Assembly: GCA_965649765.1 (NCBI GenBank)
Contig: OZ287752.1
Coordinates: 496,001 to 560,000, forward strand
Length of the DNA stretch: 64,000 nt
Direction of reading: 5' to 3'
Origin: Bispira polyomma
Lineage: Eukaryota
The position numbers were made by a program, and so were the translations under genes. The first letter of the stretch is position 1, and every line of letters starts with the position of its first letter. Shown here one piece after another: positions 4,180 to 36,870 of the stretch. Under the pieces are notes generated by a model. That model was not told the origin of the DNA, searched no databases, and was given only the letters and a program-made list of their open reading frames with translations.

Positions 4180-4196
4180 GGCACTGCAGTACAGCA

Positions 4197-7670: not shown

Positions 7671-7685
7671 TTCTAACAATTTCAG

Positions 7686-8640
7686 CATCTCCTACCTGGG
7701 TAGGATTGGCAGACAGAGCAGTCACTGGAGCGCATCAGGCCTTTCGTCCTTCCACACAAAAGTCCTACACAGCAATGTTTAGGGTATTTTTAGCATATTG
7801 CTGCTTTCCAAATATTTCTATATATAATATCGTTCCTTCAGTAATTGTAGCCTTTCTGTAGGTCCTAGTAGTTAACAATACCTCTCATACCTCTGTAGCA
7901 AACTATCTCTCAGCGATAAAAGCTAATATGTCACTATATGGGCTTCCAGTCACTGCTTTTGCGGATCAAAGAATTAAGTATTTTCAAAAAGCCCTTGTTT
8001 TACACAAACCTTTTAAGGCAAAAATAAATGGTTTCATTGACGTTGATTTGTTGCAGAAAATAGCACTGGTTTGTGATTCTATGTATATGGGGCAAGTGAA
8101 CAAAGCTGCCTATCTATTAGCATTCTTTTCTTTCTTGCGAATCTCGAATCTAGTTCCCCATTGCAGCAACTGGCTAGGGCTGATATCATTTTCGCCCAGC
8201 CAGGTGCTCACATCATAATTGAATGGACTAAAACCCTTCAGTCGAGAAACACCATTAAGGTGATAAAAATACCCACACTGAAAAATAAAATTATTTGTCC
8301 AGTGACCGCCCTCAAAGTCCTTCTTGCAATAACACCGGGTGATAAAAATTCTCCACTATTCCAAGTGAAAAACGACACTCGATGGCTAACATTAACAGAC
8401 AGCAAAATTCGCAGAAATCTCAAAGATATTTTAGTTAGACTAAACAAAGATCAAGCAAATATAACATTTCACACATTCCGTCGCTCTGGGGCGACCTTAG
8501 CATTTAATGCTCATGTTCCATTACAGGACATACAAAGTCAGGGCATCTGGTCCTCTGATTGTGGCGATATATCACTCAGGACCACTCGGCCTCTGATCAG
8601 GTTGCCCTTGCCCTACAATCTCTCCTCAACCCACTACCTA
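7686..8640 (+). pseudogene. Ngaro tyrosine recombinase (one stop, two frameshifts)
   Basis: AFRPSTQKSY, FFSFLRISNL (catalytic R), WTKT (K), FHTFRRSGAT (HxxR), GIWSSDC, then a shifted RYI carrying the catalytic Tyr. Confidence 0.92.
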
Positions 8641-8658
8641 CTCCCTAGTTGGGCCTTG

Positions 8659-9050
8659 GTGGTTATTGTCTCTTTCACTATAATTTAGTGCATATAAAAT
8701 ATAAATATTTTATCTATTATGGCCACCTTTTAGTCTAGGCCAATTGAAATATGTAATTTTGTTAAGGTTAGCTTAAATTCAAATATGTAAATTGCTTAAG
8801 GTTACCTTAAATTCTGGTAAACTTTAAGTCAAAATTCAAAAATTGTAACCTTAAATTTAGTCGCTTTGAAGTCACCCTTAAGGTGAACTTAGACTAACCT
8901 TAAAGTTCTAACTAAGGTGGCCTTATATCATATTCTAAATATACATTTTAACCCAGTTAACTATATGTGTAGTGATAGGTTAAAAAATATATATCCGAAC
9001 TGCTAGTCTCACTCAAGGTCATCCTCTCAACCTTAGGTCAGGGCACTGTG
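8659..9050 (+). repeat. Split direct repeat B1
   Basis: Matches 10000-10450 except for two segments missing here (59 bp total). Confidence 0.92.
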
Positions 9051-12326: not shown

Positions 12327-12502
12327 TCACAAGTCCTCCAGCCTGGTGCCAGTGTCTGGATCTGTCACCGTCACCTCTGGCCCAAGACTTCCCACCCTGT
12401 ATGGTGGAGGCGCCAGTCTAGAGATTCCTTGTCTGCTGGGGATGTAGGGACTGCGAGGAGGTGGTGGTAACCATGGTGATTTACGAGATGCACTCGGTGG
12501 TC
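12327..12502 (-). CDS. DEG/ENaC exon 22: Pro-rich C-terminus with PPPY, stop codon
   Basis: tttttattag| phase 1. GPPSASRKSPWLPPPPRSPY...APPPYRVG...RLEDL*. Confidence 0.8.
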
Positions 12503-15500
12503 CTAATAAAAACACATTTAAGATAGAATTCCCAACAACAGCATACCATAGCATACTTTAATTAATACTCATAAAAGTAAACATAACAGGTAAGTACATA
12601 GATGTGTCAACAATAGCAAGAGATAACAGGTTGGAAACCCACACAGCAATATAGGGTAGGTGAATCATTTTAACCTAAAATGTCTCATCATGGGCACGCA
12701 TTACAAAAACTGTGAAGTGATTGTATTGATACAAATAAATTTTTGGGTAAAATCTTCCTTTATTTTATCAGTATTTGTGGAGAACTCTGTTACATGATTA
12801 CAGTCATCTCCACGTTCGTATTTGTGTTGTTTTTTATTATCTACTTTTAACATGCTTTATTGATGTGTGGTGTATTCTAAACCGAACCAATTATGTGTTC
12901 TTCAACATAGCCTGGTTGTCATCAGTTGGCAATGACATGTTCACATTTTTCCCAAGAATGTTATCCCACAAATAAATCTCATGGCAATAGTAGCAGTCAA
13001 ACAGACCACCAAAACGACCAGGAGTTGAACAGTTGACGATCAACAGAAGACCATTCAATCACAGGATACTATTGATTCTCCTTTGAGTCAATCTTCTTTG
13101 TTCACTAGTATGAAAAGTCACCCTTTTGATGGGCTCCCCAACTAAGTGATGACTACAACTAGACTCTGGCTATTTTTAAATTATCTGGGATGCTAAAACC
13201 ACCCATCAACTGGCTGAAATAGTCCCAATGTGAAAGATAAATATATACATTTTTCTAACATGTATATATTGTTTTAATCAGGTAGAAATGAAGTCCAACC
13301 ATAATGTTTAAGCATCTGGATCCCAAAAGGAATATTTTTGTGAACGTCCTGAGACTTTATTCTTAGGATCGCCTAAGAATTTGTTACAACGAAAATAAGC
13401 ACTAAAAAAAAATATATTAAAAAAAAAGTCTGACATATTAGTATAACATCATAACTAACTACCTACCCAACATAGTGACCATTATTGTTCTGACTGCCAT
13501 TAAAGTTTTGTTAGTTTTTAACATCGGTTTGAATTGCTTCATTTTTTATCACAAAAGGTCGGAGGTTTTCAGCGTAAATAGCACTGGGTTCCTTCACTGA
13601 TAATCCTGGCCGTCGAGATATGACCAATGCTGTTGAAACCGACGTAAAAACCAAAAAATTTTAAAAATTGTTAACGTTAACACTCCCTGATGAAAACAGA
13701 TGTTAAATACCTTTTTAAGTTTTTTATAATAATAAAAATATGTATATAATCTTTGATTAATTATATTATCTTACTTCATACAAATGATGTAAATTGAAAC
13801 AAAGACCCTGACTAACCTGTACCTGATGTGGTGGGTTTGGCACAACCTTTAAAACAGCCCAGAACAGCGAGGTCTAACAACAGCTCAAAGAATTCAAAGA
13901 ATGAGAGGACAGACAGACCAAACCAGAGACCTACAGCTCCACCTAGGTCAGAGATCAGCTGGTATTCCTGTAAGTATAGAGGTCATACAGATATCAAAAA
14001 TAAATGGTGTTCATCGACCAGAGACCTGAAGCCCTACCTAGGTTAGAGATCAGCTGGTACTCCTGTAATAATGTAAGTAATGCAGATAGATATATTAAAA
14101 ATTAAATAAACTGTGTCTATTAACCTGTCAACCATATGCCACACATTACCCACAAAAACTTATGTCACCTATATTTCATATTTCACTCATCGCATATGTC
14201 ACTTATATAACACCCTCCTCTAACCACATATGTGACCTATATAACACCCACCTCTAAGCACATATATGCCACACTAACTATATATGACACACATCACTCA
14301 CCACATATATGACACACTGACTATTTATGTCACACTTCACTCACCACATATATGCCACACTAACTATATATGATACACTAACTATATATGTCACACATCA
14401 CTTACCACATATGAAGGTTTCTCTATCACTCTCTCCAGATTAAACTCCTTGTAGTAAATATCTAGCTTCAGTAGATTGTCTCTTACACTAAAGTCTGGGT
14501 CCACCTGAAAACCTGGATTGTCTGCCTCCAAATCCTCAAGTACTTTCTCCTAAACATTCGTAAATCAAGCTCCAGGTTTAAAACATATACAAGTCATGCA
14601 CCATTGAATTAAAAAGAACGTTGGAAATATTATTAGTAGTTAATAGTGGGGGGACTTTTGTATGTGTCAGACCTGCCTACCCATTTCACTAAAAGCTTCT
14701 TATAAAATCAAGTAAATGCTGCAGAAATTGTTTTGAAACACTCAAAATGGAAAACAAACCCCTGTATAAATCAAAATGGACTAACATAATAGAAATAAAT
14801 GAGTCTTGTACAATATTTTAGATACTAAAGAATACTTACACAAGGTTAAGATTATGGAGTCTATGTTTATTTATTAATGAGACTCAGAAGGTACCTAGCA
14901 CCTTTTCAGTCTGTGTTTTTTTGTTCCAGAGCTATTGGAAAATGCTAGACAATGGATTAACACAAAACTCAATAATGACATCAAATAAACTAAAGCTGAA
15001 AAAATTCTTGGATATCAAAGTTTTGATAAAAAATTTTGGCCATTAAATTGCATTCTTCTACTTTGTAGATATTATATTTATTGGTGCTCAAAGAAAAAAT
15101 CAAAAGGAAATTAAAGGGAGGCATTTCAAAGAGAAATATGTTTGGGAAATAAAATTTTCTATTCATGAAATGATGGCTACTTTAGCAACAACTTTTTAGT
15201 GGCATTTAGAATCATTAATCTATCTATATTGGTTATGTTGATATATGACTCTAGTGGTGTGTTTTTTCTTTGTTCTAATAAAAGTTAAATATAAATGTAA
15301 AGTCTTACATTATAATTGTTTACTGTGATTTGTTAAATTTAAAAGTATTTGTAATTATATAATCTGCTGGAAACCGAATTCAAGCTTTGTAAACACTCCA
15401 CAAGGAATCAATGAGAGTAATGAGTACTTACTACATGTTTGTCTGAAGGCCACAAGGCAGTAGAGAGATCTGTGATGTAGAAACTGTCACTGAAATAGAC

Positions 15501-18500
15501 CAAAAGTAGAGATGGCTCTCAGTACAGTGCTTACCTTGACCAAGGCCACATAGCGTCAAAAGCTTACCTTTACCAAGCCAACATAGAGTCAAATGCTAAC
15601 CTTTACCAAGCCAACATAGAGTCAAATGCTTACCTTTACCAAGCCAGCATAGAGTCAAATGCTTACCTTTACCAAGCCAGCATAGAGTCAAATGCTTACC
15701 TTTACTAATCCTAGTGACAAACAAACACAACTACCTGGGCAGAAGAAATTAAAAAAGATGGATCTGATATCAAACAGGGATTTAGTATAGACAAAAATGC
15801 ATCTGCTAAAACATACACTATTAAAAACAAAAACACAAAGAAATTTCTTCCTTTAACGAGGTCTTTTTGAATGTGAATGTATGAAGGGTACTAAAGAATC
15901 AATCTATGTTTTGTAATCCGTTAATATAATGTGCAAAGGTAAAAGAGAAATAAACGTCTGTATTTTAATACAAAACCCGTTTTTGAGTAAATTACTTAAC
16001 AATAACACACTAATGTAAATATTACTATTATTTGCTGTTAGTAAGTTTCATAAGACTAAATGACAACTGACCTGCATCTTTGTGGACAGTCACATGACAA
16101 CTGACCAGAAGTGAACTCTTCCTCAACACCTTTGAGGCAGGAAACTGAACACATACAGAAAACAGCTGCAGAAATTGTGTCATTTGTAAAAAGTGTTCAG
16201 GATTTGCTATAGTTTGATTACATTAAGTTGACTTACTAGTGTACACGGATGATCAGTTGTTTTGTACACATATGCTTACATTCCTTGCAAATCTTTGTGA
16301 CACATTTCTTATAAGACCCTTACCGGACCATTTACAACAGCTTTGTATTGATGACAAATGTTCTTTTTATGGGATTCAAAGCTCTATTTCACGTAACTTG
16401 ACTGCTCAAGTTGAACCAAGTAACTCTCATTCCTTAAACTAAAGACACAGATTAGTTAGTAACATGCCCAAGATACTTTCGCAAAGCATATTCATATAAG
16501 ACCACTATTTGATATAATCATCTCTGGACATTTTTACCAACACTTTTAGAATTCCTTTATTTTACACAATCAGATTGTACCATACTCTATCGGCAACCAT
16601 CGAAAACTCGAAATACCGTCCATTGCAGTCCAGAGCCACAATCATAAAATATGATTGGCACTATATATATCAGATTGCAACATTTAGTCATATGACTAAA
16701 ACCGGCAGGACTTAATGATGTCATGGCAAAATTGCATGATATCATTGCATACATTGTGAGGGGGGGGAGGGGGGGGGAGGGGGGGGGGGCGGTTGAAGTG
16801 TTAGGTGGCTTAAAATGTATGGCTTATTATTCTGACAATATGTTATTAAGCTTCACCCGGTACACCAAAGACTAACATGGATTGCAGGCTCAATACAACC
16901 TTTGGTGAGTTTCTTACTCTTAGGCCACGACATATAAACAAGTAAAATCAGTCAAGGCCTGGCTTTGTTTATCGAACCAGCAGGTGCTCACCCTGATCTA
17001 TATCTGTAGATGCACAGGCGGTGAAGTCCCCATCCAGAGCATCTCCAGAAAGGGGATAAAGAGGATCCCCACACCCACACCGGGACACAAGATACTTCTG
17101 GTAGCAAGTCTTTACACAACCCTGCTCACATAAAACATTGTACTACAATTGTTGTTTTCAACATGTGACTCATAAAAAAAGATAATCTATTCTATACAAT
17201 GGATTGTTTTGACAACCCTAGTGAACGATACATAAAATATTGTTTGTACTAAGTAATTCTCACAACCCTTAACAGTTTACTACTGTACTCCACTGGGTAA
17301 TAGTAACATCATCACTTACTGTACTCCACTGGATAATAGTGACATCATCACTTACTGTACTCCACTGGATAATAGTGACATCATCACTTACTGTACTCCA
17401 CTGGATAATAGTGACATCATCACCTACTGTATTCCACTGGATAATAGTGACATCATCACTTACCATACTACTGTACTCAACTGGGTATTAGTGACATCAT
17501 CACTTACTATACTCCACTGGGTAATAGTGACATCATCAATTACTGTACTCCACTGGATAATAGTGACATCATCACTTACTGTACTCCACTGGGTAATAGT
17601 GACATCATCACTTACTGTACTCCACTGGATAATAGACATCATCACTTACTGTACTCCACTAGATAAAAGTGACATCATCACTTACTGTACTCCACTGGAT
17701 AATAGTGACATCATCACTTACTGTACTCCACTGGGTAATAGTGACATCATCACTTACTGTACTCCACTGGGTAATAGTGACATCATCACTTACTGTACTC
17801 CACTGGATAATAGTGACATCATCACTTACTGTACTTCACTGGGTAATAGTAACATCATCACTTACTGTACTCCACTGGATAATAGTGACATCATCACTTA
17901 CTGTACTCCACTGGGTATTAGTGACATCAGCACTTACTGTACTCCACTGGATAATAGTGACATCATCACTTACTGTACTCCACTGGATAATAGTGACATC
18001 ATCACTTACTGTACTCCACTGGGTAATAGTGACATCATCACTTACTGTACTCCACTGGATAATAGTGACATCGTCACTTATTGTACTCCACTGGGTATTA
18101 GTGACATCATCACTTACTGTACTCCACTGGGTAATAGTGACATCATCACTTACTGTACTCCACTGGATAATAGTGACATCATCACTTACTGTACTCCACT
18201 GGGTATTAGTGACATCAGCACCTACTGTACTCCACTGGGTAATAGTAACATCGTCACTAACTCTACCCACTGGGTATTAGTGACATCATCACCTACTGTA
18301 CTCCACTGGATAATAGTGACATTATCACTTACTGTACTCCACTGGATAATAGTGACATCATCACCTACTGTATTCCACTGGATACTAGTGACATCATCAC
18401 TTACCATACTACTGTACTCAACTGGGTTTTAGTGACGTCATCACTTACCATACTACTGTACTCGACTGGGTAGGTCTCGGCAAACACATCCTTCCCTTCG

Positions 18501-21500
18501 CCTGTGTAATCAGTTGTACAGTTGCCATAAGGATGTGATTTCCTCTCCATATCCACCTGTATTTGTAGGGAAAGGAAGAAGTGCCATTACAACGGAATTT
18601 TAATGGATTCCTTAGTTTCTTTGTACTCTAATTCCTTTATTGCAAGTAGCTGAGTGTTTGTACACTCATAGTGAAGTTTTACATTGCAAATTCCAGAATA
18701 GGTACATAATATGCATATTTTACAGTGACATTAAAACATAGAAGTGGTAAAGGTACAATGCCTACTGTCAATGTTTTAGTATACACTTGGCCACCTACAG
18801 GACACACAGACAATATGTACCAGAGCATCCATGTGTATGTTGAGTTGACAACACGATTCAGTTAAAACAAATTACTAAAAATACCATTTTCCTTGATATG
18901 TCAGTATATCGCCTGGCTTTAGACCTGTTGGTGCAGAAAACTTTAGAAAAATATTGTCTAAAGATAGATGTGAGTAATTCGTCATAATCTACAGCTCAAA
19001 GACATGGTTGAATATCGAGTTCAAGAAGTTGGGGTGGAATTTGGATGTTTTATTTTTTGTCAGTGTGAAGGTAGCAAAGGCAAAGAAAACAGCTCTTTTT
19101 GCCACAAGGCGCAGCTTGTCGAACTTACATTAAAAGCTTAGAAAATATTCGGGTTATACCGAGATTTGAATTGGAAAATAAGGGCTTCAAAAAGAGATTT
19201 ACAAAGTTTACTCGGTATACTTATATATTTGCACAAATGTGTCTATCCGGCATGCCTGTTTGTAAACTACATGCTTCAAACTTTGCGTGGTATTAAAAGC
19301 TCTAAACAAATTTACACTGACAAAACTCTTCTGTGGGGACCTTGCTATGCCCATGGACATGGACCCATTCCTAGCATCAATAAAGTGTGTATAATAATAA
19401 TAATTAAGTCGGTGACCACAAACTCACTTTACAGGCCAACAAATAAATGGGTATTTCCTATTGAAGAGGTATAGAATATATATTTGGTGGTTAAATGGCA
19501 TAATGCTAAGCAAGCGGCAAACAAATTGTACAATTTCCACAGTTGAAACACCCAGCTTCGTGTCCGGCATCTTATAAACACTTTCCGAATTGAAGGGGAT
19601 TCACCCTTCTTTGTAATACTAAGTAGATATGGCTTGGTAGCTTTCGTTGCATCGAAAATCAGGAAGACTTTATCAACAGATTTGACTAGATTGCAAATTG
19701 ATTATAAAATATATGGATTCCATGCTTTCAGGCACTCAGAATCTATAATTTCAGGCCCATGGTGGATAGAAGAACCAGGTTATATGGCACTACCAAAAGC
19801 CCACCCCAGAACCAGCAGCTTCCATTGTTAACGTTTTCAAAAAACATATCCGTATAACTTAATTGGTTTTGGGAACTCTTTGTAAATAACTTACAAAACT
19901 AATCTGATAGTGTAACAATCTTAGTTGAATGTTTGAATGTATATTAATAATATACCTCAATGTGGTATTCATTGTGTTATTAATGTTGTTAAATTAGAAT
20001 AAGGTCAATAAATGACTTTTAAGGTTAAGTGTAGATGGAATGGTCAGACCCTGTGAAGGTCGTATGGCTAAAACCAGAACATAGATCTTTACCTCGCAAT
20101 TTTGACTTGTAGATTGCAGAGAATACAGACCGGGGGATAGCTTTTTTATCCTCCTGTGGTGACGTAATTTTTAGTGTGTTATAAGTTTGTATTTGAAGCT
20201 AATGTTTTAAGGTGACAAGTCAGTACCTCTTGTTATATTCTATAGTTTATTCTGGTATATTAGAACTACATACATGCAATAATTATATTTTATAATTGGA
20301 TAATAAAAATAAAACAATGCTCGTTCTCGGATGGTATTGATTTAGAGATAAAATTTTAAAATATGCGTCACTTGGAAAATTTTCCTATTATATTCCATTG
20401 TTTAAAAGATAAGTTTCTGCCCATCAAGTAAAGATATACTTCTGATAAAACTTTCACTTCTAAGTTGGTCAAGTAAAGACTAAACTGTGACAACGCCTGT
20501 TCCCCACCAACCTACAGGCCTACCTGTCTGACACCTATAGAGAGGAGTTGTCCCGGCTGTGCCAGTATACCTAAATCCCGGGGATAGGGCATCATGTTTT
20601 GGGTGTGGAGGACTATACGGGCACCAGCCGGACCTACCAGGAGATCTGTGTACTCTGATTGGTCGACATTGATCATCAGGGACAAGCCTGAAAGGTACAA
20701 AAGTCTTGCAGTCAATTTCAATATTGCTGCTTTTAGGATGCTTTAAATTCTGTTTTGGTGTTAATGTCTTTACAGGTAGGTATTATTTAATGACGGGCAG
20801 TATATTGGTATAGGAAAGAGTAGGTGGTAAAGATTTCTGAGATACAGATGTTTTAGAAGACAAAGAAACGTTAGTTAAAACCATTTTTATCATATAGGTT
20901 TCCACCTAACAAAGTGACTTTTGGGTGTTTACCAAAGCTTTATAAATGACCATAGACAAAAGATGTGAAAACACCAGGGTGAAACGTTTCATTGGTTGTG
21001 TAGTTGATATGGTTGGCCAAGTCCGACCAGGGAGCTGTCAAATTTTGATACCATCTATGAGTCCTTTAATTTTAAGCACTTTATGAAACAATTTAAATTA
21101 ACCAATTTTCGTTCTCCCTGTAAATATAATTTAAATGTGTTCTCTTAATTGTTCTAGTTTTTTTACCATAATCAAATAGCCTACCATATCTCTGTCCAGT
21201 TCTATGCGCTGTAACCGTCTGACGAGTGTTTCCCCAACCTGAGTTGTAAGTGAAACAGTTGCCCAGCAACGGGTCATAGAAATGCTGGAAATCCCTGCAA
21301 ATACCAGATATAACTTTGTGTTGCATAACTAATTACATAGTTCTAAGCAATTTGCATTCTTTCACATTGATTAAAAAACTACACATTTTTTCAGACAGAT
21401 ACTCAGTAGTCTGCAAAACCCTGCCGACAACAAAGGAAAATTGCCTAGATTTACTTTTTTCAAACTGTGTCATGGATTATGCCTTTGCTCATGTCCCATT

Positions 21501-24500
21501 GCTACACCAAATTACATGGTATTTTTTGTGAATTCCAGGTGACAATCAAACCAAGAGAAACAGGTTAACATACGACAAACTTCCTTTACAGAGAAAACTA
21601 GCTAAAATATGACATTTGATGATGAGGTAGTGGACGAAAGGAATGCTTCCGAACAGCATCGTTAACACATCATTTTAGTTTTGAACCTTTTATTTTATCT
21701 TAATCATAAATTCATTATGTCTATTGAAATACACAATTGGTTGTTTAAATATTTTTGTAAAAATAAAAAGAGATTCAAGATTTCAGTTTTGTGAATGATT
21801 TACTGATGCTGATTAGCTGGTTAATTACCCCTTGTTAGCAGCCGTCTTGACTACTGTAACTCTCTTCTGTTCGGAGTAAACAAGTCACACATCAAAAAGC
21901 TCCAGTCCATTCAAAACTACCTATGCAAGGTTGTTTTTCGTCCAGGTTGTCGCACAAACTCCACTCCTTACCACAAAAAACTACACTGGCTGCCCATATT
22001 GCTCTCGTATTTTGTTCAAGATTTACGTTATCACTTTTAAGGCTATAGTCACTTAACAGCCCTCCTACCTTGCTTCCCCTCAATCCTTCAGTAACAGTAA
22101 GAGAGGCAACAGACTGTCTGTTTCTTCGGTCAGACTTTTCAGGAAGGCGGGATCCAGAGCATTCTCCATTGCAGCTCCCTCGTTATAGAACAAACTCCCA
22201 GTTGACCTTAGATCAGTGGATACACTCATCGGTTTTAGGAAAAGCTTTATCTTTTTAACCGTGCCCACCCACCTTAGCTTCTTTGTACATGATCCCACTT
22301 CATTCTTTACAACCTTGCTATGCCCATGGACAATTGGATCAATGATTCTGCTGTTGCGCTTTAGAAGATGCCTGGCATTAATAAAGCGCGTTAACAATTC
22401 ATAATAATAATTTGAATAACAGTTAACGGTAGATTTATATGCAGAGTATAAATTTGAATAGACTACTGTTATAAGTACACATACCTGGCCAGCTCACACA
22501 CTCGCCCTTCATAAGTACAGGACAGAATGAGTTCATTGATCTGGTAACCCATGGCAACTTTGGTGTCCTTCGGGAAAACAATATATATTATTAAGTTGAT
22601 CTATTAAATGTAATCAGCAAGAACAAATTTAGCAGAGAGGGATATCAGTTCAACCAAATCTTTGCATAATACAAGTTCAGATAAGTTCTGAAAACTGGAT
22701 TGGAAAGCCTAAGATCTTCTAGTGAGCTCTACTTCTATAGATTTTGTTAAGCCCCATTATTATTTTTTTTTATTTTTGCCTCAAATAATTAATATATGTT
22801 ACATTTTGTAGAGTACACTATTACAACTGTCTTTAGCTTTGTATCTTATAGTATCCTTTACAGAATAGTAAAAAAAACTTTTTCATGACAATTTTTACTA
22901 AACCTCTTTTAGTGCGGTACTAAAGGCAATTCTGGATGTTGATCACTTTTACCCATGAGCTCTACTATTAGGTGACACAGGAAGTTATGGACTACCCACT
23001 ACCCTGTTGTGAAGAGGATGTTGTACCTGTGTTTCCGTAGACAGAGTTTCTATCACATTTTCCCCCAGCAGAAAGTCATCACTCATTGGATCTGACATAC
23101 AAAAGTCAATATTTCTGCACAATAGTCTTTTGTGATAAATGAAAACTTGAAAATTGCATAGTGCATCCATTATGATTGCAAACCACAGGCTTAAATCATG
23201 TGAAGAAATATCTATATACAGCTTTAATGATTACTGAAATGCAAATATTAATAATACAATAACATGATGTTATACAGCATTAAACGGTTTTCAGCAGCCC
23301 AACATGACATAATATCGGCTAATTGGCGTTAAAGCCCAAAGGTTAAAACACTTGTGATGGAAGGCCTGTGTAAATTGATAAGGGGGTTGTCTGGCGAGAT
23401 ATAAAAATTGTAATGTTGTCATACATTACAATTTTGAAGTACGTTATTATCTTTACTGACCTTCCTCAGGCAGTCTATACTCAATACTAGTGTTTACAGG
23501 ATCTGTCACTATAGAAACAGTAGTTGTTGGCTCTGTTGAAGTGGACATGGCTGTAAAGATATCAATTTAAAGTGATGATTTAAACAGTTAGTCTTGCATA
23601 CGTAATACGTAAGTACACATTTTTAGGTAGATCTAATTGTTTGCTTTTTCAAAGACAGCATTGGATACACAAAATAAACTCCTGTAAACTTACGTTACTG
23701 TACACGATTAGCATGTGCACAACTATGTGGTGGGAGTATCGACTATAATTGATGTCATAATGGCAGATACTACCTGGCTACCTACGGATGTGAGATGAGA
23801 AATTGAATTGAAAAAGAAAACTCTGAACCTATTTTCTGCGATGAGCCTACTTGGCTCTTTAACTTTCTCTGCTCGAGGGCGCTTTTATGGTAGCAACACT
23901 TGTTATGGTTTATGGAGTGTCACTTTGCAACAAAACACTGCCTTAGAGGATATCATATTATTAACTGGGCAATTTAGAAGCTATCATATTCTAACTATTA
24001 CTGTAAATAATAATAAAAGGCTATTTTTAGATTGTGAATATCCCCTTTACCTTCACAGGTCACTACATTCCCTTCCCAAGTACCAACCGCCAAGCTCCGC
24101 CCACCAATACACACCAGTGTATGATTGACAGCTCCATCAGAAAACTGGTACCCTGTGTCACATGTGTAAGTAAGCACCCAGCAGGCAGTACTATTGTCCA
24201 CGGAAACCAGTGTGTTCAGGTAAGCAGGAATATTAGGGCAAAGGGCACCAGCTGAAGAAAATATACACCATATATACACAGTCTTTATAGGTTCTGGCTT
24301 TAATTGGTAGAAACATGTCATTGAAATTTGTGTTCACTGTATTTACTTTCGTTCTTAAGCTATGCCATGGAGGTTATGTTTTTACCTGTGTCTCTTGGTT
24401 TGTTTCTTTTTCACAAAAACTATTAAGTGAAATTTTATTTATATGTAACACCATTCTTTTGATGTACTTATAAATATAAATACTATGTAACATATTGACA

Positions 24501-27500: not shown

Positions 27501-30500
27501 TAGTTTGGTGTACAAAGTGGAGATAATGAAGTTTAGACAAAATACAGTCAACCCTCTTCTCATTTTACATTATTCTTTTGGTTCTTATTTGAATTTCTCT
27601 TCTAATAATTGACACGTTAATTTTCTGAACAGTATCATACTCTCCACCAGCATTCAGAAAATAGAGTTTCTATGGAGCATAGAGTGGAGTTGACTGGTGT
27701 ACTATTTACTAATCAATACTTTATGGATCTGCACGTATAAAGAAGTGGCATACAAAATATAAAACAGAGATCATGTACAAACTAGTGGATAGTTGCTAAT
27801 GTGACACAACATTAATATAAAAAGATTATATAACTTTTAAATAATAACTAATAAACTGATAGTATAGAAAATTTAATTTATAATAACCAAATAAATAATA
27901 ACTCTTATACCCACGAGTGGATAAGTCACAAGATAAATATTGAAAGCAAAATTATATATCATTTGATATTCAGACATACCAAGAAAGTGAAACTTGTCAA
28001 ATTATAAAATTTAAACCGCTTCCTTGTTCTGATGCGGATTAACATGAAAAACAGATTAAAAATTGACCATTGACTTTGTATTGTGAAGTCGACCTGAGGT
28101 ACCCGGCTGTGTAAGAACTTTCAGGTATTTTGGCATTCTAGGTGGTTTTAATACTGTACCTTACTTTATGTAAAATAGGCATAAAATATATGTAGCTGTG
28201 TAATATACTAATGTTTTGTTTCTAAATATTCTGAGGACAGCCTGTTGTTTGTGCGAACTATCTCTGAAATAAAGCTATTATTATTTGTATTTTTACATTG
28301 ATATTTTTAAAGCAAAAGCTTTACAAAGTCCTCAGTTGGTACAAATGAAAAACTTTACCTGTGATAACCAGCATTTCTGTTCGGTTCTGCCAGTGAAAGT
28401 CAAGGGTCATTTTGGATGTAACAATATAATTAGCACCAATTTTAGCACAGGATTCATACAACAGCATTGCATCAAAACCTAAAAGAATATAAAGGCCATT
28501 ATATGATTGAGTATGTGTAATGTGAGAATTCGTTTTGTAAGACGTGTAGAATCACTACTACCTTAATTAACAATGCTTCGTGTCTGATATATTCCAACAA
28601 AACTTACTGGATTGTTTTTCTACTTAGTTCTTTGAAATTATACAATGTAATGGTCATTTCATAGTCTTTGTAATTATACAATGTAATGGTCATTTCATAG
28701 TCTTTGTAATTCAAATTTATTAATAAATATCCTACATACTTTAATTAATTTTGTACAAATCGGATAGTAGCAGTGATATTTCAGTATAGAAGAAATATAC
28801 AATATTTATTATAGACATTTGGTTAATGTAATAAAGGTATTACTATATTGCTGTCATAATTGTTATTATTGTTTGAAAACAAAATTAATGTAATCATAAA
28901 ACTCACCCTCTGACAATCATGACAAATACATGAAATACAATTTACAACAACTGTACAAACATGAACAGCATATTTTGCACTACTTACAGTCAGATATGAC
29001 TGACAAGTCCATCTGGCCGCCATATTGGTCTGAGGAAGCAGAACAGTGCAGAGATTTTGTGGTGCTGCCATCTAGGAATGGTCTACTGACGTCACACGTC
29101 ACTTGATAGTATCTGGTACATGCATCACCTAGCAACACAAAAGTCCAACAATATAACCAGATAAACCATGACCAGTGGCCAGACCTTCAAAAAAACTTAC
29201 TTCAGTGAAGTTAATCTTCAGCAACCATTTCTGAAAGTAATTTAGGCTGATCGATATTTTGTTTAATCCATTTTCAATTTACAGAGTAAAGTCTCAGTTG
29301 AACTCTGCATTTCATGTCAATTTTACAGATATAATTAAAATACTACTTTTAAATTTGGTGTACAATTTCTACAAAATATCCTTGAATATTTACCTGATTT
29401 TGAGTTAAGTTGCCCATAGAGTGGACTTGGCTTGCCACACGCATGCTCTAAAACATAAGTTTATAATTAAAAAATAGCATTATGTCACACAGGCTCGTTC
29501 ATTCCTCCTTTAATTGACAATGTATAAGGCTTGGTCATGAATTTTTTTCCTTTTTGGCCTGTTAATAATATGTTGTAGTTTGCTCAACTGTTTTATAGTT
29601 TGGTTATGTCACTGGTCTCATGGTTTGGTCATGTGATTGTTTCATGGCAATTTTTTCATAGTTGGTCACGTGACTTGTGTCATAGATGGGGTCTTAGACC
29701 ATCTTTTCAGATTGTCCCATGTTACTTTGCCCAACACTGTTTCCCCAAATAGTTGTATGTCATGTTGCATTGGTTTCCAAAACCCTTCCCCTCTCTGTAC
29801 CACATGAATGCACTGGCTCAGCCAAGGACAAACAACATCAATGTCAACTGGACCATTAGAACTCGATCATCAATGCTAACTCACACAGTCCTGACAAGTT
29901 AACTAAAAAAACTTCATCTGACATCTCAACAACCTTTGTCTGATAGGCATTGATTCATTTATCATGGGATCAATTTGGAAAATTATTCATTGATAAGATA
30001 AGCAAACTCCAAGGTTCTCAATTCTACCTACTAGCCGTGGGCTTCAAAGTGTCTAGTCTGTTCAAGTTTCACACACTTTTAGAGAATGGTGTTCTCAAAC
30101 TCCTAAAATCCTCTTCTGTCAAACCCTGCAAAACTTGATTTTGTCCCTGCCACGATTGTCTGCATATTCTTATCACTCCTCTTGTTTTAAAATCCCGGAG
30201 GAAAATGAGCTGAAAATTACAGACCTGTTTTCAATCTCAGATTTGTGTCTAAACTGATTGAGGAGATTGTCGCAAAAAAAATCTTTGATCACATTATCAC
30301 GCAAAACTTTACTAACTCAGATCAATCTCCTTTCAGAAATGTTTACTGCACAGAAAGTGCCCTTTCTTCCACCAGTAATGCAATACCTTGGATTTTAATG
30401 AAAATGTTGGCCTCATCCGTGAACCTGGTTTACTAGCTGACAGAGTTAAATAGTGGATCCTAGCTGACTCTCAGAACCCAAAAATTAAAATTAAATGACA

Positions 30501-33500
30501 ACTTATTATCCTCTTTGAATCTACCATACATAGTACCTCAGCCGTTGGTCCTCATGCCTCTTATTTAACCCTTTATACATATCCCCCAGCATTGTTATCT
30601 CCACAAATATTCCCTATTACACTACAAGGGAAACATAGTCTACCTTCTGATGTAAAGCGCCTCAGTGTTACAGTTAAATCTGTCTTTTCATTTGATACTC
30701 ACTCGAATGTAGAGAGTAAATATACTCTCTGTAAAAACCTTTATCATTCCCAGAGTTGTATTTACCTGTTTTATGCATGGTGTCTAATCCTCCGTCCAGT
30801 ACCTGAGAGTTGTATTTACCTGTTTTATATATGGTATCTAACCCTCCATCCAGTACCTAGTATCTAGAGTTGTATTTACCTGTTTTCTACATGGTGTCTA
30901 ACCCTCCGTCCAGTGCCTGATACTTAGAGTTGTATTTACCTGTATTATATATGGTGTCTAACCTTCAGTCCAGTACCTGATACCTAGAGTTGTATTTACC
31001 TGTTTTATATATTGCGTCTAACCCTCCGTCCAGTACCTGGTATCTGGAGTTGTATATACCAGGACACAGAAACAACCGTAACCCTGTCCAGTCGTCTAGA
31101 ACCCAGGCTGGATCACCTACAAACAAAGTACATTGTAAAGCCATTGACTTGTTTGTTTGTCACCAGGGTAACACATACCTACTGAACTGATTGACAAGGA
31201 ATTGGGTGAGGAAAGACAGGAATAGAAAAGACATAACACCATTCGTTTTTTCCCTTGGTGGCACTTTGTTGCCTTGTTATATGTATCCACTTTACTTAAT
31301 GTTAGAGTTAATGTGTAGTTATTTGTACTATCTATCTTTGTTCTGCCAGAATGAACCAACACGTCTTCAAAAGTAGTAATACCTTTTGTTTCATTTATTG
31401 TAGAGAGAGAATTTTTATTCTTTTGAGTTTGACATTACTTTCAACATTTTTGAATTAATCTTTTTGTAGATATATTCTTGGGAAACTACACAGCAACTAT
31501 CGAGACTAAATAGCATGCTTTCCAGTATAAAATTTCGACACTAACAACAAAAAGATTGTGATTCTTGTATAGAATTACAAAGGACAACTGCTATTATTTT
31601 TGCAAGAAAGAAACTGAAACCACATTGACCACTTTTTGCAAAAGCATAAAAACAGCACAAGTAATAACTTTGATAATACATCAGCTTTAATGTTTACTCC
31701 GTCCTAGACACTTTTACATGTAAACACTTCTTTTTGTGTGCCAGTTGACTTAATGAGGCAGTTTTGATAAATTATTTATTGATAATTGTTAAGAAATATA
31801 CACATAACTAAAAGCCTTGTGGGTAAATGACATATATAAAACATCACTATCGTTTATCGTTTACTTCTGTACAAACTGAGAAGGCAAGATTAATTTGAAT
31901 AGAAACCTTTAAAACCTCTATTTTCAAGGTTGCAAATTCAACTCCACTGAACAAACCATGTTTGAAAGCCTGATTTATTCGTGACTGAAGGGACTAGAAC
32001 TTGTTCTATATTTCAGTTACCTGCTATACCCATAGACAGGGTTTGATCTCTGTCTGCACCCAAATCAGCCACAGTATTTGTAAAACTGGTGATGTAAGAC
32101 TTCTGTTTCTCAGCCCCATAGAGATGGACAATGCCTGCCAATGTAGAGGTACAAGTATGTAGGCCAGTTGTAGAGGTACAGGTATGTAGGCCAGTTGTAG
32201 AGGTTCAAGTATGTAGGCCAGTTGTAGAGGTACAGGTATGTAGGTCAGTTGTAGAGGTACAAGTATGTAGGCCAGTTGTAGAGGTACAGGTATGTAGGTC
32301 AGTTGTAGAGGTACAGGTATGTGGGTCAGTTGTAGAGGTACAGGTATGTAGGTCAGTTGTAGAGGTACAGGTATGTAGGCCAGTTGTAGAGGTACAGGTA
32401 TGTAGGTCAGTTCTAGGGTAAAACCGTGATTAGAACCACTTCTATTATCTGAAGATCCAATTTTATTAACACACTTTGTTCTACATGTGCATTGTTTTTT
32501 CTGTACTAGCGCACTCTAAGGTCCATTTGATTAGAAACAATATTTTATCATTTTAAATTAGAACTAGGGTCAATTACAAGTAGGCAGGTAGTGCCTGGTC
32601 GTTGTCAGCTATGGTGGGAATGTTTTGCCAAACAAACAAGTTGTTTAAGTCTCCATGTAACAGTTCTAAGGGTAAAAGTTGTATGTACTGTATAACATAA
32701 CGTCATTCCACAGTCGCACCATATGACAAACTACATTCAAAGTCAACTTCAGGTTTCTCTATAAAATGTAGGTATTAATATGGTGTTTGACAAAGAAGGG
32801 GGTCACCAAACTCAAACAATGACCACTCACAATTTGCAATAGTTACAAAACTTCCAAATTAACTGTACATGACTGTAAATGCTCTATATTTACCATTTGT
32901 CTGTCTCTTTTTCCGCTTTCTGTCACTTGTATAATCACCAGACAAGAGGTCATTGAGAACTTGGCTTCTGTAGAGCTGAGAGCTCTTCACCGGATTGATG
33001 TTACACACAGTTACCGCTGTAATCAAGTGGGGTGTATAGGTCAGAGGGTGTATATGTAGGTTAGATGGTGTATGTATGTCAATGGGTGTATGTATAGGTC
33101 ACATGGTGTATATATATAGGTCAAAGGGTGTGTGTATAGGTCAAATGGTGTATGTATACGTCAAAGGGTGTATATACAGATCAAAGGGTGTATGTATAGG
33201 TCAAAGGGTGTATATATATATAGGTCAAAGGGTGTATATATATAGGTCAAAGGGTGTATATATAGGTCAAAGGGTGTATATCTAGGTCAAAGGGTGTGTT
33301 TATAGGTTAAAGGGTGTAGGTATAGGTCAAAGGGTGTGTTTATAGGTTAAAGGGTGTATGTATATGTCAAAGGGTGTATGTATATGTCAAAGGGTGTATG
33401 TATAAGTCAAAAGCTGTATGTATAGGTCAAATGATGTATATATATATAGGTCAAAGGGTGTATATATAGGTCAAATGGTGTATATATATAGGTCAAATGG

Positions 33501-35273
33501 TGTATATATATAGGTCAAAGGGTGTATATATATAGGTCAAAGGGTGTATGTATAGGTCAAATGGTGTATGTATACGTCAAAAGTGTATATATAGGTCAAA
33601 GGGTGTGTTGTAGGTCAAAGGATATATGTATAGGTCAAAGGGTGTGTGTATATGTCAAAGGGTGTATGTATAGGTCAAATGGTGTATATATATAGGTCAA
33701 AGGGTGTATATATAGGTCAAAGGGTGTATGTATAGATCAAATGGTATATATATACAGGTCAAAGAGTGTGTGTATAGGTCAAATGGTGTATATATATATA
33801 TATATATATATAGGTCAAAGGGTGTATNNNNNNNNNNNNNNNNNNNNNNNNNNNNNNNNNNNNNNNNNNNNNNNNNNNNNNNNNNNNNNNNNNNNNNNNN
33901 NNNNNNNNNNNNNNNNNNNNNNNNNNNNNNNNNNNNNNNNNNNNNNNNNNNNNNNNNNNNNNNNNNNNNNNNNNNNNNNNNNNNNAGAAACTTAAGGAAG
34001 TTACAGTTCATTCAAAACTATCTGTGTAGAGTCGATTTCCATCTGGAGATCCATACTTATGTTTCCATACCTTAACAATTACATTGGCTTCCTATAGTTA
34101 ATATAAAATTTTTAAAATCTATGTACCCACTTTTAAAGCATGTTGTCTCTCAAGAGCCCTCCTACCTTGCTGCTCGAATTTCCTTTAGCAACTTAAAGAG
34201 GGGAAGGAGATTCTGTGTTTTCTGTGTAAAACCTACCAAGAGGGTTTGATCTAGAGCTATCAGGGGGCTTATATACAAGTTAGGGGCTGCATAATACAGT
34301 CAGAGAGTAATATACAGGCAAAAGGGTGTAGGTCAGAGGATGTATATATAGGTCAGACGATGTATATACTTCATATGATGAATATATAGGTCACAGGCGG
34401 ATATATAGGTCACAGGTGGAAATGAACTACCGGTTGAAACTTGTATCGGTTATGCATATAATGTCATTTTTAATTTCAAATATACTGAGTGTAGTGAGTT
34501 TAGACCGAATGCCTTTCTATGAATACCCCTGACATCCTTACATATCTACCTACCTGGAAATACCATGTTATAGCTGTTGACGATCTGCATGTTCACACTG
34601 ACCCTGAACTTCAGGAAAGTGTAAAAAAGACTGTAGACGTGAAAAATCATGGCTCCCAGTACGAGGACATTGATACACAGCCAAAGAGTGACCTTGACTG
34701 GCCCTGGAAGTAAACAAGGGTCAAACAATAATGTGCACAACCAGCGAGTGACCTTCAGAGAGCCTGAAAAACTAGATAGTTGATTTTTCTATTTCCATTT
34801 AATGACCTATGACTGCAACTTTTCCACAGGCTTGTTAAATATTAAGTTAATTAACAATGACCTATGGCTACAGCTTCTCAACTTCACCACAGGCTTGTCA
34901 TATATGTAGTTAATTAACAATGACCTATGACTACAACTTTACCACAGGCTTGTCATATATCAAGTTAATTAACAATGACCTATGACGACAGCTTCACCAC
35001 AGGCTTTTCAAATATCAAGTTAATTAACATGCTTTGAAATATTTTTAAAGACCCCCAAAAGTCGCAAAGATATATATATGAAATAGATATGACCTAGAAC
35101 ATGTAACGCCCACCTCTGGCCTGTGTAACATGGGGTATCCCATGTGCTGTTGTCCCTTCTTTAAACCCGGCCCACAATGACTTGGCTGTAGGTCTTCTGT
35201 TTCCACTGGCTTCTTGCGTCAGGTGATATTCATACAACCTTGACCTTCTTCTCGGCTCTTCCGGTGACGTCAT
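12327..35273 (-). CDS. DEG/ENaC-family amiloride-sensitive channel subunit, 22 coding exons, ~887 aa, with two inserted betagamma-crystallin-like + Sushi modules
   Basis: All introns are GT-AG with matching phases, and exon lengths sum to 2664 nt with no internal stop. Motifs: TTAHGIPH, TM1, FPAVTVCNINP, SCTYEG, GNCFTYNSG, GLSLMIN..AGARIVLH, Cys-rich thumb, ISDLGGAVGLWFGLS (TM2), PPPY. Confidence 0.92.
13817..13967 (-). CDS. DEG/ENaC exon 21: TM2 / selectivity filter
   Basis: EYQLISDLGGAVGLWFGLSVLSFFEFFELLLDL. ttacag| and |gttagt. Confidence 0.93.
14160..14405. repeat. Degenerate minisatellite next to the exon 20 donor
   Basis: Repeated CACATATATG(C/A)CACAC and CTCACCACATAT units. Confidence 0.75.
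14406..14549 (-). CDS. DEG/ENaC exon 20
   Basis: EKVLEDLEAD...RDNLLKLDIYYKEFNLERVIEKPSYV. tttag| and |gtaagt. Confidence 0.92.
15432..15489 (-). CDS. DEG/ENaC exon 19
   Basis: SDSFYITDLSTALWPSDKHV (WPS motif). tttcag| and |gtaagt. Confidence 0.9.
15530..15705. repeat. 33-bp minisatellite, ~5 copies
   Basis: Unit CTTACCTTTACCAAGCCA(A/G)CATAGAGTCAAATG. Confidence 0.9.
16072..16144 (-). CDS. DEG/ENaC exon 18
   Basis: VSCLKGVEEEFTSGQLSCDCPQRC (thumb CxCPxxC). Confidence 0.9.
16992..17121 (-). CDS. DEG/ENaC exon 17
   Basis: GCVKTCYQKYLVSRCGCGDPLYPL...AC (thumb). Confidence 0.92.
17278..18448. repeat. 36-bp minisatellite, ~32 copies, related to the exon 16 end and donor
   Basis: Unit GACATCATCACTTACTGTACTCCACTGG(A/G)TAATAGT. 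Confidence 0.97.
18449..18556 (-). CDS. DEG/ENaC exon 16
   Basis: VDMERKSHPYGNCTTDY...YPVEYSSM. atacag| and |gtaagt. Confidence 0.92.
19100..19850 (+). mobile_element. Highly deleted DIRS/Ngaro relic (RT connection and YR pieces) in intron 15
   Basis: KRDLQSLLGILIYLHKCVYPACLFVNYMLQTLRG, KHPASCPV-like segment and YGFHAFRHS (HxxR). Confidence 0.75.
20524..20687 (-). CDS. DEG/ENaC exon 15
   Basis: GLSLMINVDQSEY...AGARIVLHTQNMMPYPRDLGILAQPGQLLSIGVRQ. Confidence 0.95.
21185..21294 (-). CDS. DEG/ENaC exon 14
   Basis: DFQHFYDPLLGNCFTYNSGW...TGQRYG (family signature). Confidence 0.95.
21825..22412 (+). mobile_element. LINE 3' fragment (CR1/L2-group) with (ATA)n tail
   Basis: LVSSRLDYCNSLLFG, KLQSIQN, KLHWLPI. 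AATAAA then ATAATAATAA. Confidence 0.85.
22485..22567 (-). CDS. DEG/ENaC exon 13
   Basis: DTKVAMGYQINELILSCTYEGRVCELAR. Confidence 0.92.
23027..23091 (-). CDS. DEG/ENaC exon 12
   Basis: DPMSDDFLLGENVIETLSTETQ. Supplies the required phase 1->0 change. Confidence 0.8.
23461..23550 (-). CDS. DEG/ENaC exon 11: Ser/Thr-rich linker
   Basis: AMSTSTEPTTTVSIVTDPVNTSIEYRLPEE. tttacag| and |gtcagt, phase 1-1. Confidence 0.75.
24051..24251 (-). CDS. DEG/ENaC exon 10: Sushi/CCP domain 2
   Basis: LCPNIP...LTYTCDTGYQFSDG...LVC...GTWEGNVVTCE, phase 1-1. Confidence 0.88.
25981..26112 (-). CDS. DEG/ENaC exon 9: betagamma-crystallin-like domain 2, second Greek key
   Basis: GPSAWLVFDAPYYSTDGEWSSLCPGEYSSGEFFTAATIESVSKI, phase 1-1. 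Confidence 0.8.
   Translation of the reverse strand, partial: APVPGLYLMLHITAQMGSGAVCVQGSIRVESFSLQQPLNLSPR
26179..26611. repeat. 41-bp minisatellite, ~10 copies, resembling the exon 9 acceptor
   Basis: Unit GTACTGGGGTCTGAATA(C/T)AGGGGAAATAGA(G/A)CACATACAC(A/G). Confidence 0.95.
26612..26878 (+). mobile_element. tRNA-derived SINE with TSD
   Basis: GGGGCC..GGTAGCCTAGTGG (A box), GTTCGAATCC (B box), (AATTC)n tail. TSD GTCTGAAATATACA at 26598-26611 and 26879-26892. Confidence 0.92.
28359..28478 (-). CDS. DEG/ENaC exon 8: last Cys of Sushi 1 + crystallin-like domain 2, first Greek key
   Basis: CFDAMLLYESCAKIGANYIVTSKMTLDFHWQNRTEMLVIT. cttttag| and |gtaaag, phase 1-1. Confidence 0.78.
28988..29128 (-). 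CDS. DEG/ENaC exon 7: Sushi-like domain 1 body
   Basis: GDACTRYYQVTCDVSRPFLDGSTTKSLHCSASSDQYGGQMDLSVISD(C). |gtaagt. Confidence 0.8.
29394..29447 (-). CDS. DEG/ENaC exon 6: Sushi-like domain 1 start
   Basis: EHACGKPSPLYGQLNSKS. gttttag| and |gtaaat, 54 nt, phase 1-1. Confidence 0.72.
29780..30750 (+). mobile_element. Heavily decayed CR1/L2-group LINE ORF2
   Basis: FIDKISKL, NYRPVFNLRFVSKLIEEIV, QSPFR..CTESAL, FPITLQG remnants. Confidence 0.7.
30751..31058. repeat. 60-bp tandem repeat, ~5 copies, of the exon 5 3' end plus donor
   Basis: Unit GAGTTGTATTTACCTGTTTTATATATGGTGTCTAACCCTCCGTCCAGTACCTGATA... Confidence 0.92.
31000..31116 (-). CDS. DEG/ENaC exon 5: crystallin-like domain 1, second Greek key
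   Basis: GDPAWVLDDWTGLRLFLCPGIYNSRYQVLDGGLDAIYKT. Paralogous to exon 9 (AW..LCPG.Y). Confidence 0.75.
32021..32134 (-). CDS. DEG/ENaC exon 4: crystallin-like domain 1, first Greek key
   Basis: GIVHLYGAEKQKSYITSFTNTVADLGADRDQTLSMGIA. Only the phase-1 frame is open. |gtaact donor. Confidence 0.75.
32142..32415. repeat. 27-bp minisatellite, ~10 copies, abutting the exon 4 acceptor
   Basis: Unit GTAGAGGTACAGGTATGTAGG(C/T)CAGTT. Confidence 0.95.
32894..33016 (-). CDS. DEG/ENaC exon 3 (AVTVCN motif, furin-type site)
   Basis: AVTVCNINPVKSSQLYRSQVLNDLLSGDYTSDRKRKKRQTN. Confidence 0.95.
33030..33827. repeat. ~20-bp minisatellite with variable (TA)n, running into the gap
   Basis: Unit AGGTCAAAGGGTGTATATAT. 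Confidence 0.95.
33828..33985. other. Assembly gap (N run)
   Basis: Run of Ns inside intron 2. Confidence 1.
33986..34260 (+). mobile_element. LINE 3' fragment (second CR1/L2-group family)
   Basis: KLQFIQNYLCRV..LHWLPI. Similar to the reverse complement of 55500-55780. Confidence 0.8.
34554..34703 (-). CDS. DEG/ENaC exon 2: TM1
   Basis: GPVKVTLWLCINVLVLGAMIFHVYSLFYTFLKFRVSVNMQIVNSYNMVFP. An alternative in-frame acceptor lies at 34763. Confidence 0.92.
34800..35030. repeat. ~55-bp tandem repeat, ~4 copies, in intron 1
   Basis: AATGACCTATGAC..CACCACAGGCTTGTCATATATCAAGTTAATTAAC. Confidence 0.85.
35114..35273 (-). CDS. DEG/ENaC exon 1: N-terminus with HG gating motif
   Basis: MTSPEEPRRR...SLWAGFKEGTTAHGIPHVTQAR. 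The start ATG at 35273 is the likely one. Confidence 0.88.
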
Positions 35274-36870
35274 GATGACACAACAACTATCAACTGTTTC
35301 ATATCTAACCACTGCTTGTGTTACCTTTAATAATCCAGATTATTTCATCCCATATACACATTTCTTATGAATTTCATTTTCAAATATCTTGAACACAATC
35401 ATATTACACTAAAAGTCTCATAACCAGCAGTAGACCATGTTGTTTTGTCAATGAGTCTTGATGACAGTACTTTAATACATGTATGTCTGTTAATGTGTTC
35501 TTTATTCAAACCTAAGTTTATATTGTTGCTGTTTGTATATTTAAAATTATGATTAATAAATTCCATTCATCCGTTTTCTATTATTTGTATGCATATTTGT
35601 GTATATGTGTATACATGTGTACATTACATATCAATAAAGTGCGTTAAAATAATAATAATATTATTATCACATATTTTACTAAGCATCTTATAAAATAAAT
35701 AATGTAAAAAATAGAAAACATAAATTGTCAATTTACTGTATGGTTCAATATCAATTTTCAATTTCCCAAAAGACAAAGAATATTTTCAGATATTTTTTAT
35801 AAATCTAACAGTATGAAAAATTTACAGTTTGAAAAAGAAACCTAATTCATGAAATAAATTTGATAATTATTAAAAAATAGTTTTACCCACAATTATTTCA
35901 CTGATATGCACAAAACAAACTCGTTTTACCCACAATGACTTCAGTGATATCCACAAAACAGTACTGAGGTCTCTGTAGAGTGAAGAGTATTTAAATTTTA
36001 CATGAGTTTATGACTTCATATTCAGAAATCTGTCAAACTTGTCAGCAATTACAACACACTAAGGTTTGACACGTCTTATTGATGTTTACAACCTTGATTG
36101 TTTTGTCTTTCTTTACAGTTTATATAACAATAACTACATATCCTGCACCTGTTCCCCCCTCACATGCCCCCACTCAGTCCTTGTCAAAGGGTTTGTGTTT
36201 ACATAAAGAAACTCAGTCTTTGAACAGGGACTTGTAGCCAGAGATCCAGACTTGTACTTAACATGGAGCAGTCCATGAATCATTTGGAAGTAATTAAGTC
36301 CTGGATATCCAGAGTTATTACAGCCTATTGGCGTGTGACCTCATTGATCTCAGGAGAGGAAGGCAATCATATAATAACACTTAATGTAGATGTTTTATCC
36401 TCAGCTCCCAAAATTGTGAGATAACAGATAATAGATTGGGAATGGATGTCAATTACATGTCAGTTATTTCAATGAATCGTGGAGATTGATAGGTTTAATG
36501 TTGTATTAATTTTCTATGGTATTCAATGGCAACCATAAACCAGCAGAAACTCGTTTGGTTTCATAAGTTAATATGTCACACATGTCAATACAAACTTGTG
36601 GGCCTTTCAATACACAAGTGGCTTGTGTGATTTGTATTTATTTATTTACTTACTTTGGTAAGTGATATGCAAATTTATAATTTCTATAATAACATCTCAA
36701 AATCAACAGACCTTGTTTGCACGATCCAGAATTCAGGAAAAATCCTTACTTCATTTAAGCATAATAATTATCAATCGAGCATAGTCCAAATGAAGGTCTA
36801 CTATACTCCAAACCAATTAAACAGAAAACTTGTACTCAGATTTATACATCATTCAATCCTTTGTCCACTC

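Follow-up and report, generated by a model that had tools for sequence, protein, structure and literature searches.

In genes sampled from the genome of Bispira polyomma, tandem repeat arrays cross exon-intron junctions at two to three times the frequency expected from an even distribution of their origins. The subject is a 64,000-nt stretch of this genome, hereafter called the window (assembly GCA_965649765.1, contig OZ287752.1, positions 496,001 to 560,000), which on its minus strand carries a predicted ion channel gene of the DEG/ENaC family (12327..35273; window coordinates are used throughout). A first-pass annotation had proposed that the splice junctions of this gene are repeatedly duplicated or amplified into minisatellites, either by a mutational process aimed at exon edges or by survivor bias. 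Such junction-spanning arrays, named "mirage" minisatellites in amphioxus (see below), were thus far known from a handful of genes; in the genome considered here they occupy about 9% of junctions, or 11-14% by a more sensitive alignment test. What is new is the controlled count, which supports the general pattern at exon edges as a feature of the genome and not of the single gene in which it was noticed.

Array Origins Are in Excess at Exon-Intron Junctions

Taken alone, the window gene cannot decide the question (two arrays detected by Tandem Repeats Finder, hereafter abbreviated as TRF, cross a junction against 1.3 expected, p = 0.40), and dynein and myosin genes were therefore sampled. These comparison genes, 20 dynein heavy-chain loci and 20 myosin loci, were picked by Pfam family, blind to repeats, and annotated by a spliced aligner against reference proteins. 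Introns were kept when recovered with two references and with good flanking scores, which left 480 of the 641 dynein introns of the first pass, 151 from 18 myosin loci and 196 from held-out dynein stretches, 827 in total; two of three near-identical myosin paralogues were dropped from the counts. Arrays were defined as merged TRF rows with a period of at least 10, and under the null for their origin each founder unit was placed evenly within its collapsed host intron.

On this basis, 91 of the 250 dynein arrays cross a junction against 36.1 expected, with 18 of the 20 genes exceeding expectation, while the myosins gave 25 of 106 (7.2 expected) and the held-out dynein stretches, for which the excess had been predicted beforehand, 35 of 108 (13.3 expected). 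When the data are pooled, 151 of 464 arrays cross a junction against 56.6 expected (2.7-fold), or against 71.3 with a larger founder footprint (2.1-fold). Six end-to-end simulations placed 54-70 of approximately 256 detected arrays across a junction (about 24%), to be compared with 147 of 306 observed (48%). Overall, the excess of array origins at junctions is 2.0- to 2.7-fold under three nulls and in three data sets. Measures that do not depend on TRF found outer-end units at 10.7% of junctions versus 2.5-3.3% at 100-300 nt inside the intron, and the alignment test detected copies at 14.4% and 11.4% of junctions versus 1-4% inside. The excess is limited to units that start in the exon, since arrays beginning 10-200 nt inside the intron remain at background.

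The answer flips with the null that is chosen, origins or coverage. By coverage, 151 of 1,654 junctions are spanned by an array (9.1%) versus 13.3% of intron bases lying in arrays, and the TRF-free coverage profile is flat at 10-14%; measured against the high background density of minisatellites, a comparison that the first-pass annotation had itself raised, there is no excess. This null shows none because the interior counts every copy that is added to an array and the junction only the array's end unit. The same coverage figures, together with the unenriched window gene, are what favors the view that junctions have no real preference and are hit by chance in a minisatellite-rich genome, but the origin counts contradict this for the genome at hand and we consider it very improbable. 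By the TRF-free alignment test, 4 of the 42 junctions of the window gene are copied versus 167 of 1,220 elsewhere (p = 0.65), and the window gene is an ordinary gene of its genome in this respect.

Other explanations of the counts were tried and rejected. Creep of TRF edges into exons does not account for them, the ratio being unchanged when 8 or 12 exon bases are required, with which the simulation concurs. A chromosome-end effect was dismissed on the basis of similar results for near-end loci (21 vs. 8.7 expected) and the others (95 vs. 34.6). GC content or dilution by transposons fails as the full cause, with a 1.84-fold excess left in dyneins after GC weighting and repeat masking. Nor is there enrichment of arrays that abut an acceptor without crossing it (6 vs. 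5.2, 10 vs. 8.7 and 8 vs. 13.2 in the three nearest bins).

Donors and acceptors contribute 82 and 69 of the pooled junction arrays, a balance that depends on the family: 44 and 47 in dyneins versus 21 and 4 in myosins (p = 0.001). The largest array in the sample, located in a dynein intron on C1 around 24.43 Mb, is a donor mirage in which a 41-nt unit is repeated about 158 times (6.4 kb).

Age, Size, and Instability of Junction Arrays

When the pooled arrays are separated by age and copy number, young two-copy duplications show 6 cases at junctions versus 5.3 expected (38 arrays, ratio 1.13, interval 0.42-2.46), older two-copy duplications 21 versus 10.4, and multi-copy arrays 120 versus 37.6, the same order being found in the held-out set. 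Multi-copy arrays of high identity are also enriched (27 vs. 10.4 expected), and units under 25 nt are at expectation (4 vs. 3.3). The junction excess climbs with intron length (2.0-, 3.0- and 4.2-fold), as expected if young DNA dilutes intron interiors, and 26% of dynein intron bases match another locus. Among interior units, copy number rises with GC content (rho 0.32, p = 0.0003).

Junction arrays are length-unstable and quick to change in copy number, as is observed between myosin paralogues. In three paralogues that are 98-99% identical, the copies of one donor array number 12, 24 and 16.8, and one of these paralogues carries a new 78-nt acceptor duplication. The three genes lie on three chromosomes (C11, 4.16-4.19 Mb; C8, 1.21-1.24 Mb; C13, 27.29-27.32 Mb), and minisatellite copy number is the main difference among them.

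The units were held by the first-pass annotation to be unrelated to each other and of local origin, a claim that stands. The genome searched comprises 1.035 Gb in 75 contigs, with the window 0.5 Mb into a contig of 88 Mb; in a search that skipped very common words, the own locus was the sole match of the 36-, 41- and 33-nt arrays of the window, and only four cross-matching pairs were present among 164 array units. A dispersed repeat family, with the same unit at many loci, was rejected on these grounds. Assembly artefact was likewise rejected, given contigs from three sequencing runs (at most two samples from one study, possibly the assembly's own source, hence not independent of the source sample). 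The exon 5 array is spanned by contigs of all three runs, as is the region of exons 20 and 21, and the exon 2 duplication is spanned by those of two runs, all without differences; it is to these features that the rejection applies.

Longer Survival or Aimed Mutation

Junction arrays are locally born tandem duplications that begin in the exon and continue into the intron; they are likely neutral, and their excess probably derives from longer survival and growth rather than from mutation aimed at exon edges. In the process that we envisage, short duplications would be born roughly evenly along genes; those that are wholly exonic would be purged by selection, whereas those spanning a junction would retain one complete and correctly placed site, namely the first donor or the last acceptor. 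The end unit, anchored in the exon, could neither be deleted nor drift freely, while the interiors of introns turn over through deletion and transposon insertion. Anchored seeds would then persist longer, so that more of them might expand by slippage or unequal exchange, possibly helped by higher GC content, and their decoy sites would be mostly ignored, or the products cleared by nonsense-mediated decay. Of the two mechanisms put forward in the first-pass annotation, a survivor-type effect fits better than targeted mutation because young two-copy duplications show no excess, although the class is small.

According to the strongest competitor, duplications that take in exon sequence are born or expand at a higher rate owing to lesions that accompany transcription or splicing (paused polymerase, R-loops, nucleosome edges), and those confined to exons are afterwards lost through selection. 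We regard this as rather unlikely, yet several results speak for it: the restriction of the excess to units starting in the exon, its presence at both donors and acceptors in dyneins, the enrichment of high-identity multi-copy arrays and the brand-new acceptor duplication in one myosin paralogue. Young two-copy duplications and units under 25 nt, neither of which is in excess, speak against it. A bolder form of the idea, in which a coupling of DNA damage and repair to splicing or to exon chromatin makes exon edges hotspots of duplication or array expansion, with approximately one in ten junctions amplified to yield a bank of intact decoys, appears doubtful to us; if true, the genome would constitute a thousand-locus test of how the spliceosome chooses among identical sites.

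Several points weigh against survival as the source of the excess. With 38 arrays, the interval for young two-copy duplications is compatible with a two-fold birth bias, and the thresholds for age and copy number were set after the first data had been inspected. The 1.84-fold excess that persists in dyneins under GC and repeat controls also counts in favor of aimed mutation. A frozen-anchor test gave 0.915 on the exon side and 0.854 on the intron side (n = 47), a difference in the expected direction that is not significant (p = 0.10). In the first data, acceptor units containing at least 20 nt of intron, which had been predicted as a mark of selection, were more frequent than the corresponding donor units (47 of 51 vs. 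35 of 65), but the held-out repeat of this comparison failed (11 of 18 vs. 12 of 17, p = 0.72), and the idea that an acceptor copy needs its own branch point was dropped. Moreover, the sample extends to two gene families, with about 0.9 Mb of intron. Population long reads would allow a choice between the two mechanisms.

Decoy Splice Sites and Selection

The proposal that the arrays create banks of decoy splice sites, which are putative alternative sites, holds with respect to intact decoys, both for the window gene, the decoys of which are scored below, and for the dyneins. In the latter, the GT is intact in 322 of 344 donor copies and the AG in 184 of 199 acceptor copies, about as often as neighboring exon bases, and in 257 of the donor copies and 115 of the acceptor copies the score is within 1 bit of that of the authentic site. 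The genome thus offers numerous instances in which identical splice sites compete, and junction arrays can mislead gene prediction. Retention of GT and AG at the level of adjacent exon bases suggests little selection either way; selective loss of decoy sites was rejected on the same counts. For interior arrays, a preference of splice motifs for the sense strand was likewise rejected (donors 11 vs. 6, p = 0.30; acceptors 15 vs. 14).

It could be argued that the arrays are retained for use, as spare or tunable splice sites that provide alternative isoforms or regulation coupled to decay. In line with this, the decoys are strong, three of those in the window gene (one at exon 2, two at exon 9) are in frame and open, and GT identity in copies is slightly higher than that of other positions (0.945 vs. 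0.87). Nonetheless, GT and AG are no better conserved than nearby exon bases, most decoys of the window gene break the frame or run into a stop, multiples of three are not over-represented among unit lengths and copy number differs two-fold among near-identical paralogues, so that we judge retention for use to be improbable. The periods of acceptor arrays include fewer multiples of three than expected (14 of 69, p = 0.02 uncorrected), a further point against usefulness; in-frame decoys, in evading decay, may be harmful.

Junction Copies in the Window Gene

To evaluate the individual copies, a 36-mer from each of the 42 junctions of the window gene, with exons numbered as in the first-pass annotation, was aligned with its own intron as well as with 300 foreign ones, and splice sites were scored in bits with weights trained on 313 dynein introns. 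Five junctions outscore all 300 foreign introns, namely the donors of exons 5, 16 and 20 and the acceptors of exons 9 and 21, so that both 5' and 3' boundaries are represented. These five were all listed by the first-pass annotation; the remaining entries of its list require qualification, as detailed below. Features are on the minus strand unless stated otherwise.

The donor of exon 5 is contained in a mirage of about five 60-nt units (30752..31060; TRF and junction alignment), with four decoy donors that equal the authentic score of 10.7 bits and an in-frame stop within each extension. A more complex structure is seen at the exon 16 donor (17281..18471; TRF and junction alignment), where about 31 copies are present, close to the 32 units of 36 bp originally counted. 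Three of them, counting the authentic one, are 44-nt founder units that hold the exact donor, and approximately 28 are shortened units of 36 nt. The two extra exact donors score 9.5 bits and the remaining units 4-5.6 bits, the shortened units having weaker donors because they lack 8 nt of the founder, including the last exon bases; the array thus holds only two additional exact donors. At exon 20 the mirage has a period of 43 nt (14193..14415; junction alignment) and decoy donors at +61 and +104 with 8.0 bits versus 8.7 for the authentic site, each copy including only about nine exon bases.

On the acceptor side, the exon 9 mirage consists of about 10.5 copies of a 41-nt unit (26099..26609; TRF and junction alignment) and offers around ten decoy AG of 7-8 bits versus 11.0 for the authentic site, two of which, located 117 and 282 nt upstream, keep an open reading frame. 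Its inner units have 91% matches, whereas the end unit with the authentic site has diverged (25/41). A high-copy interspersed element, likely a short interspersed nuclear element (SINE; 26612..26868, no strand assigned), is inserted in this array between the two copies of a 16-nt direct repeat (26598 and 26879). Beyond it stands a further copy of the acceptor (26900..26948, 33/49 identity) which, with 12.3 bits, exceeds the authentic site; part of the array is therefore older than the insertion. The acceptor of exon 21 belongs to a 95-nt two-copy duplication (13896..14085, 65/95 identity), the decoy AG of which scores 9.5 bits versus 9.6 for the authentic site, is out of frame and leads to stops.

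Of the less secure entries, the 60-nt duplication at the exon 2 acceptor (34656..34775, alignment) is old and borderline because its identity is 34/60 and one of the 300 foreign introns scores as high. Its decoy AG, 60 nt upstream, has 8.5 bits versus 11.9 for the authentic site and would add 20 residues in an open frame. The 13-nt exact match at the exon 18 donor (16060..16105, alignment) does exist and is rare (2 of 631 other donors have one), yet the site with which the junction is paired is exonic, 33 nt upstream within exon 18, and hence there is no intronic decoy. The arrays reported to abut the acceptors of exons 3 and 4 are indeed present, 18 and 7 nt away, respectively, but neither includes the junction, and abutting of this kind is at background. 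The former, with 39 copies of a 20-nt unit (33035..33827, TRF), is interrupted by an N stretch and has further copies at 34329-34416, while the latter has ten copies of 27 nt (32142..32420, TRF); the consensus units of both lack a sense-strand AG. The N stretch measures 158 nt (33828-33985), so that the length given for the 20-nt array in intron 2 is approximate. The 27-nt array contains 11 strong donor-like sites that are antisense to the gene.

Intron 18 contains an array absent from the original list, 5.4 copies of a 33-nt unit that does not derive from a coding junction (15528..15705; TRF and site scores), with five strong donor-like sites, the first two of 11.3 bits. An AG located 11 nt ahead of the first strong donor outlines a candidate micro-exon of 11 nt (minus strand, within 15528-15711), which would shift the frame if included and could be a poison exon, a relic or the product of chance.

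Relation to Known Minisatellites

The genome of B. polyomma is about twice the size of lancelet genomes. Judged by a dynein search and by its myosins, which show identities of 0.56-0.64 to those of arthropods, molluscs and a priapulid versus 0.51-0.54 to those of fishes, the host is invertebrate-like. In amphioxus, mirage minisatellites have been described in Adh3, the globins BflGb6 and BflGb9, troponin C and PGBD5 (PMC3087553, PMC3902484), and the account of their properties mentions length instability and undisturbed splicing without aberrant mRNA, their mechanism being called unclear (PMC3087553). The arrays reported here agree with those descriptions in that exon-intron boundaries are copied locally and in tandem, on the donor as well as the acceptor side, in that units measure from tens of nt to about 150 nt and often keep the AG or GT, and in that copy number is unstable; at exon 9, the boundary unit has diverged as well. 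At the level of sequence they thus have the features of mirages, a repeat type already named; unlike the single-gene accounts from amphioxus, the present data count their frequency and their excess over chance.

Comparable in arrangement is the 37-bp variable number tandem repeat (VNTR) in intron 7 of human F7, where identical pseudo-sites come after an initial unit that includes the donor itself; the most upstream site is reported to be chosen (PMC1557585). Exons 5 and 16 of the window gene likewise have a donor-spanning first unit followed by pseudo-sites. The F7 study differs in treating one human locus with experiments, and its description of the repeat contains nothing on acceptors or genome-wide frequency. 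The model of Rogers, in which introns are gained through tandem duplication of sequence containing AG/GT (cited in PMC3087553), also involves duplicated splice signals, and the 13-nt match at exon 18 has the orientation predicted by that model as outlined there, with the intron start copying exon sequence; however, the arrays analyzed here lengthen existing introns, with no new intron shown. Human splicing-associated tandem repeats (spl-TRs) can alter splicing through their length near splice sites, for instance by shifting the branch site (PMC10078293). As presented in that source they concern protein binding or spacing, whereas the arrays described here copy the junction itself. Our full-text literature search, which included few subscription journals and no supplements, retrieved no genome-scale count of junction-spanning arrays and no report of mirages outside lancelets.

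The Host Gene and the Remainder of the Window

The model of the host gene, set by coordinates, has 22 predicted coding exons on the minus strand, from 35273 to 12327, which encode 866 codons without stops and are separated by GT-AG introns. Translations of 18 exons were scanned against Pfam; exons 2, 3, 15, 17, 20 and 21 match the ASC (amiloride-sensitive channel) profile in profile order, exon 21 alone passing the curated cut-off, and exon 10 matches Sushi. Six ordered ASC matches and one Sushi match therefore point to a DEG/ENaC-family channel gene with an inserted Sushi-domain exon. Exon 15, used as a query for homologues, gave no match at E <= 0.001. Exons 4-9 (25981-32134) add about 200 residues to the predicted extracellular part of the channel, ahead of the Sushi exon; the five of them that were scanned have no Pfam match, and all six begin in phase 1, like shuffled modules. 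Elsewhere in the genome there is a large family of single-exon DEG/ENaC genes, with dozens of uninterrupted matches, including seven identical-scoring copies spaced by about 13.3 kb on C12 (5.79-5.87 Mb).

Outside the gene, remnants resembling a tyrosine-recombinase retrotransposon and several pieces of LINE-like reverse transcriptase, as we take them to be by eye, occupy 3100-8700 and 43000-49300. Two further arrays deserve mention. On the minus strand, 15 copies of a 43-nt unit (49935-50633) directly follow a moderate acceptor-like site at 50633 and could border a non-coding 5' exon. An array of about 17 copies of a 51-nt unit (62068-62954), in which no exon was identified, carries 19 strong donor-like sites on the plus strand and is possibly the mirage of an unannotated exon.

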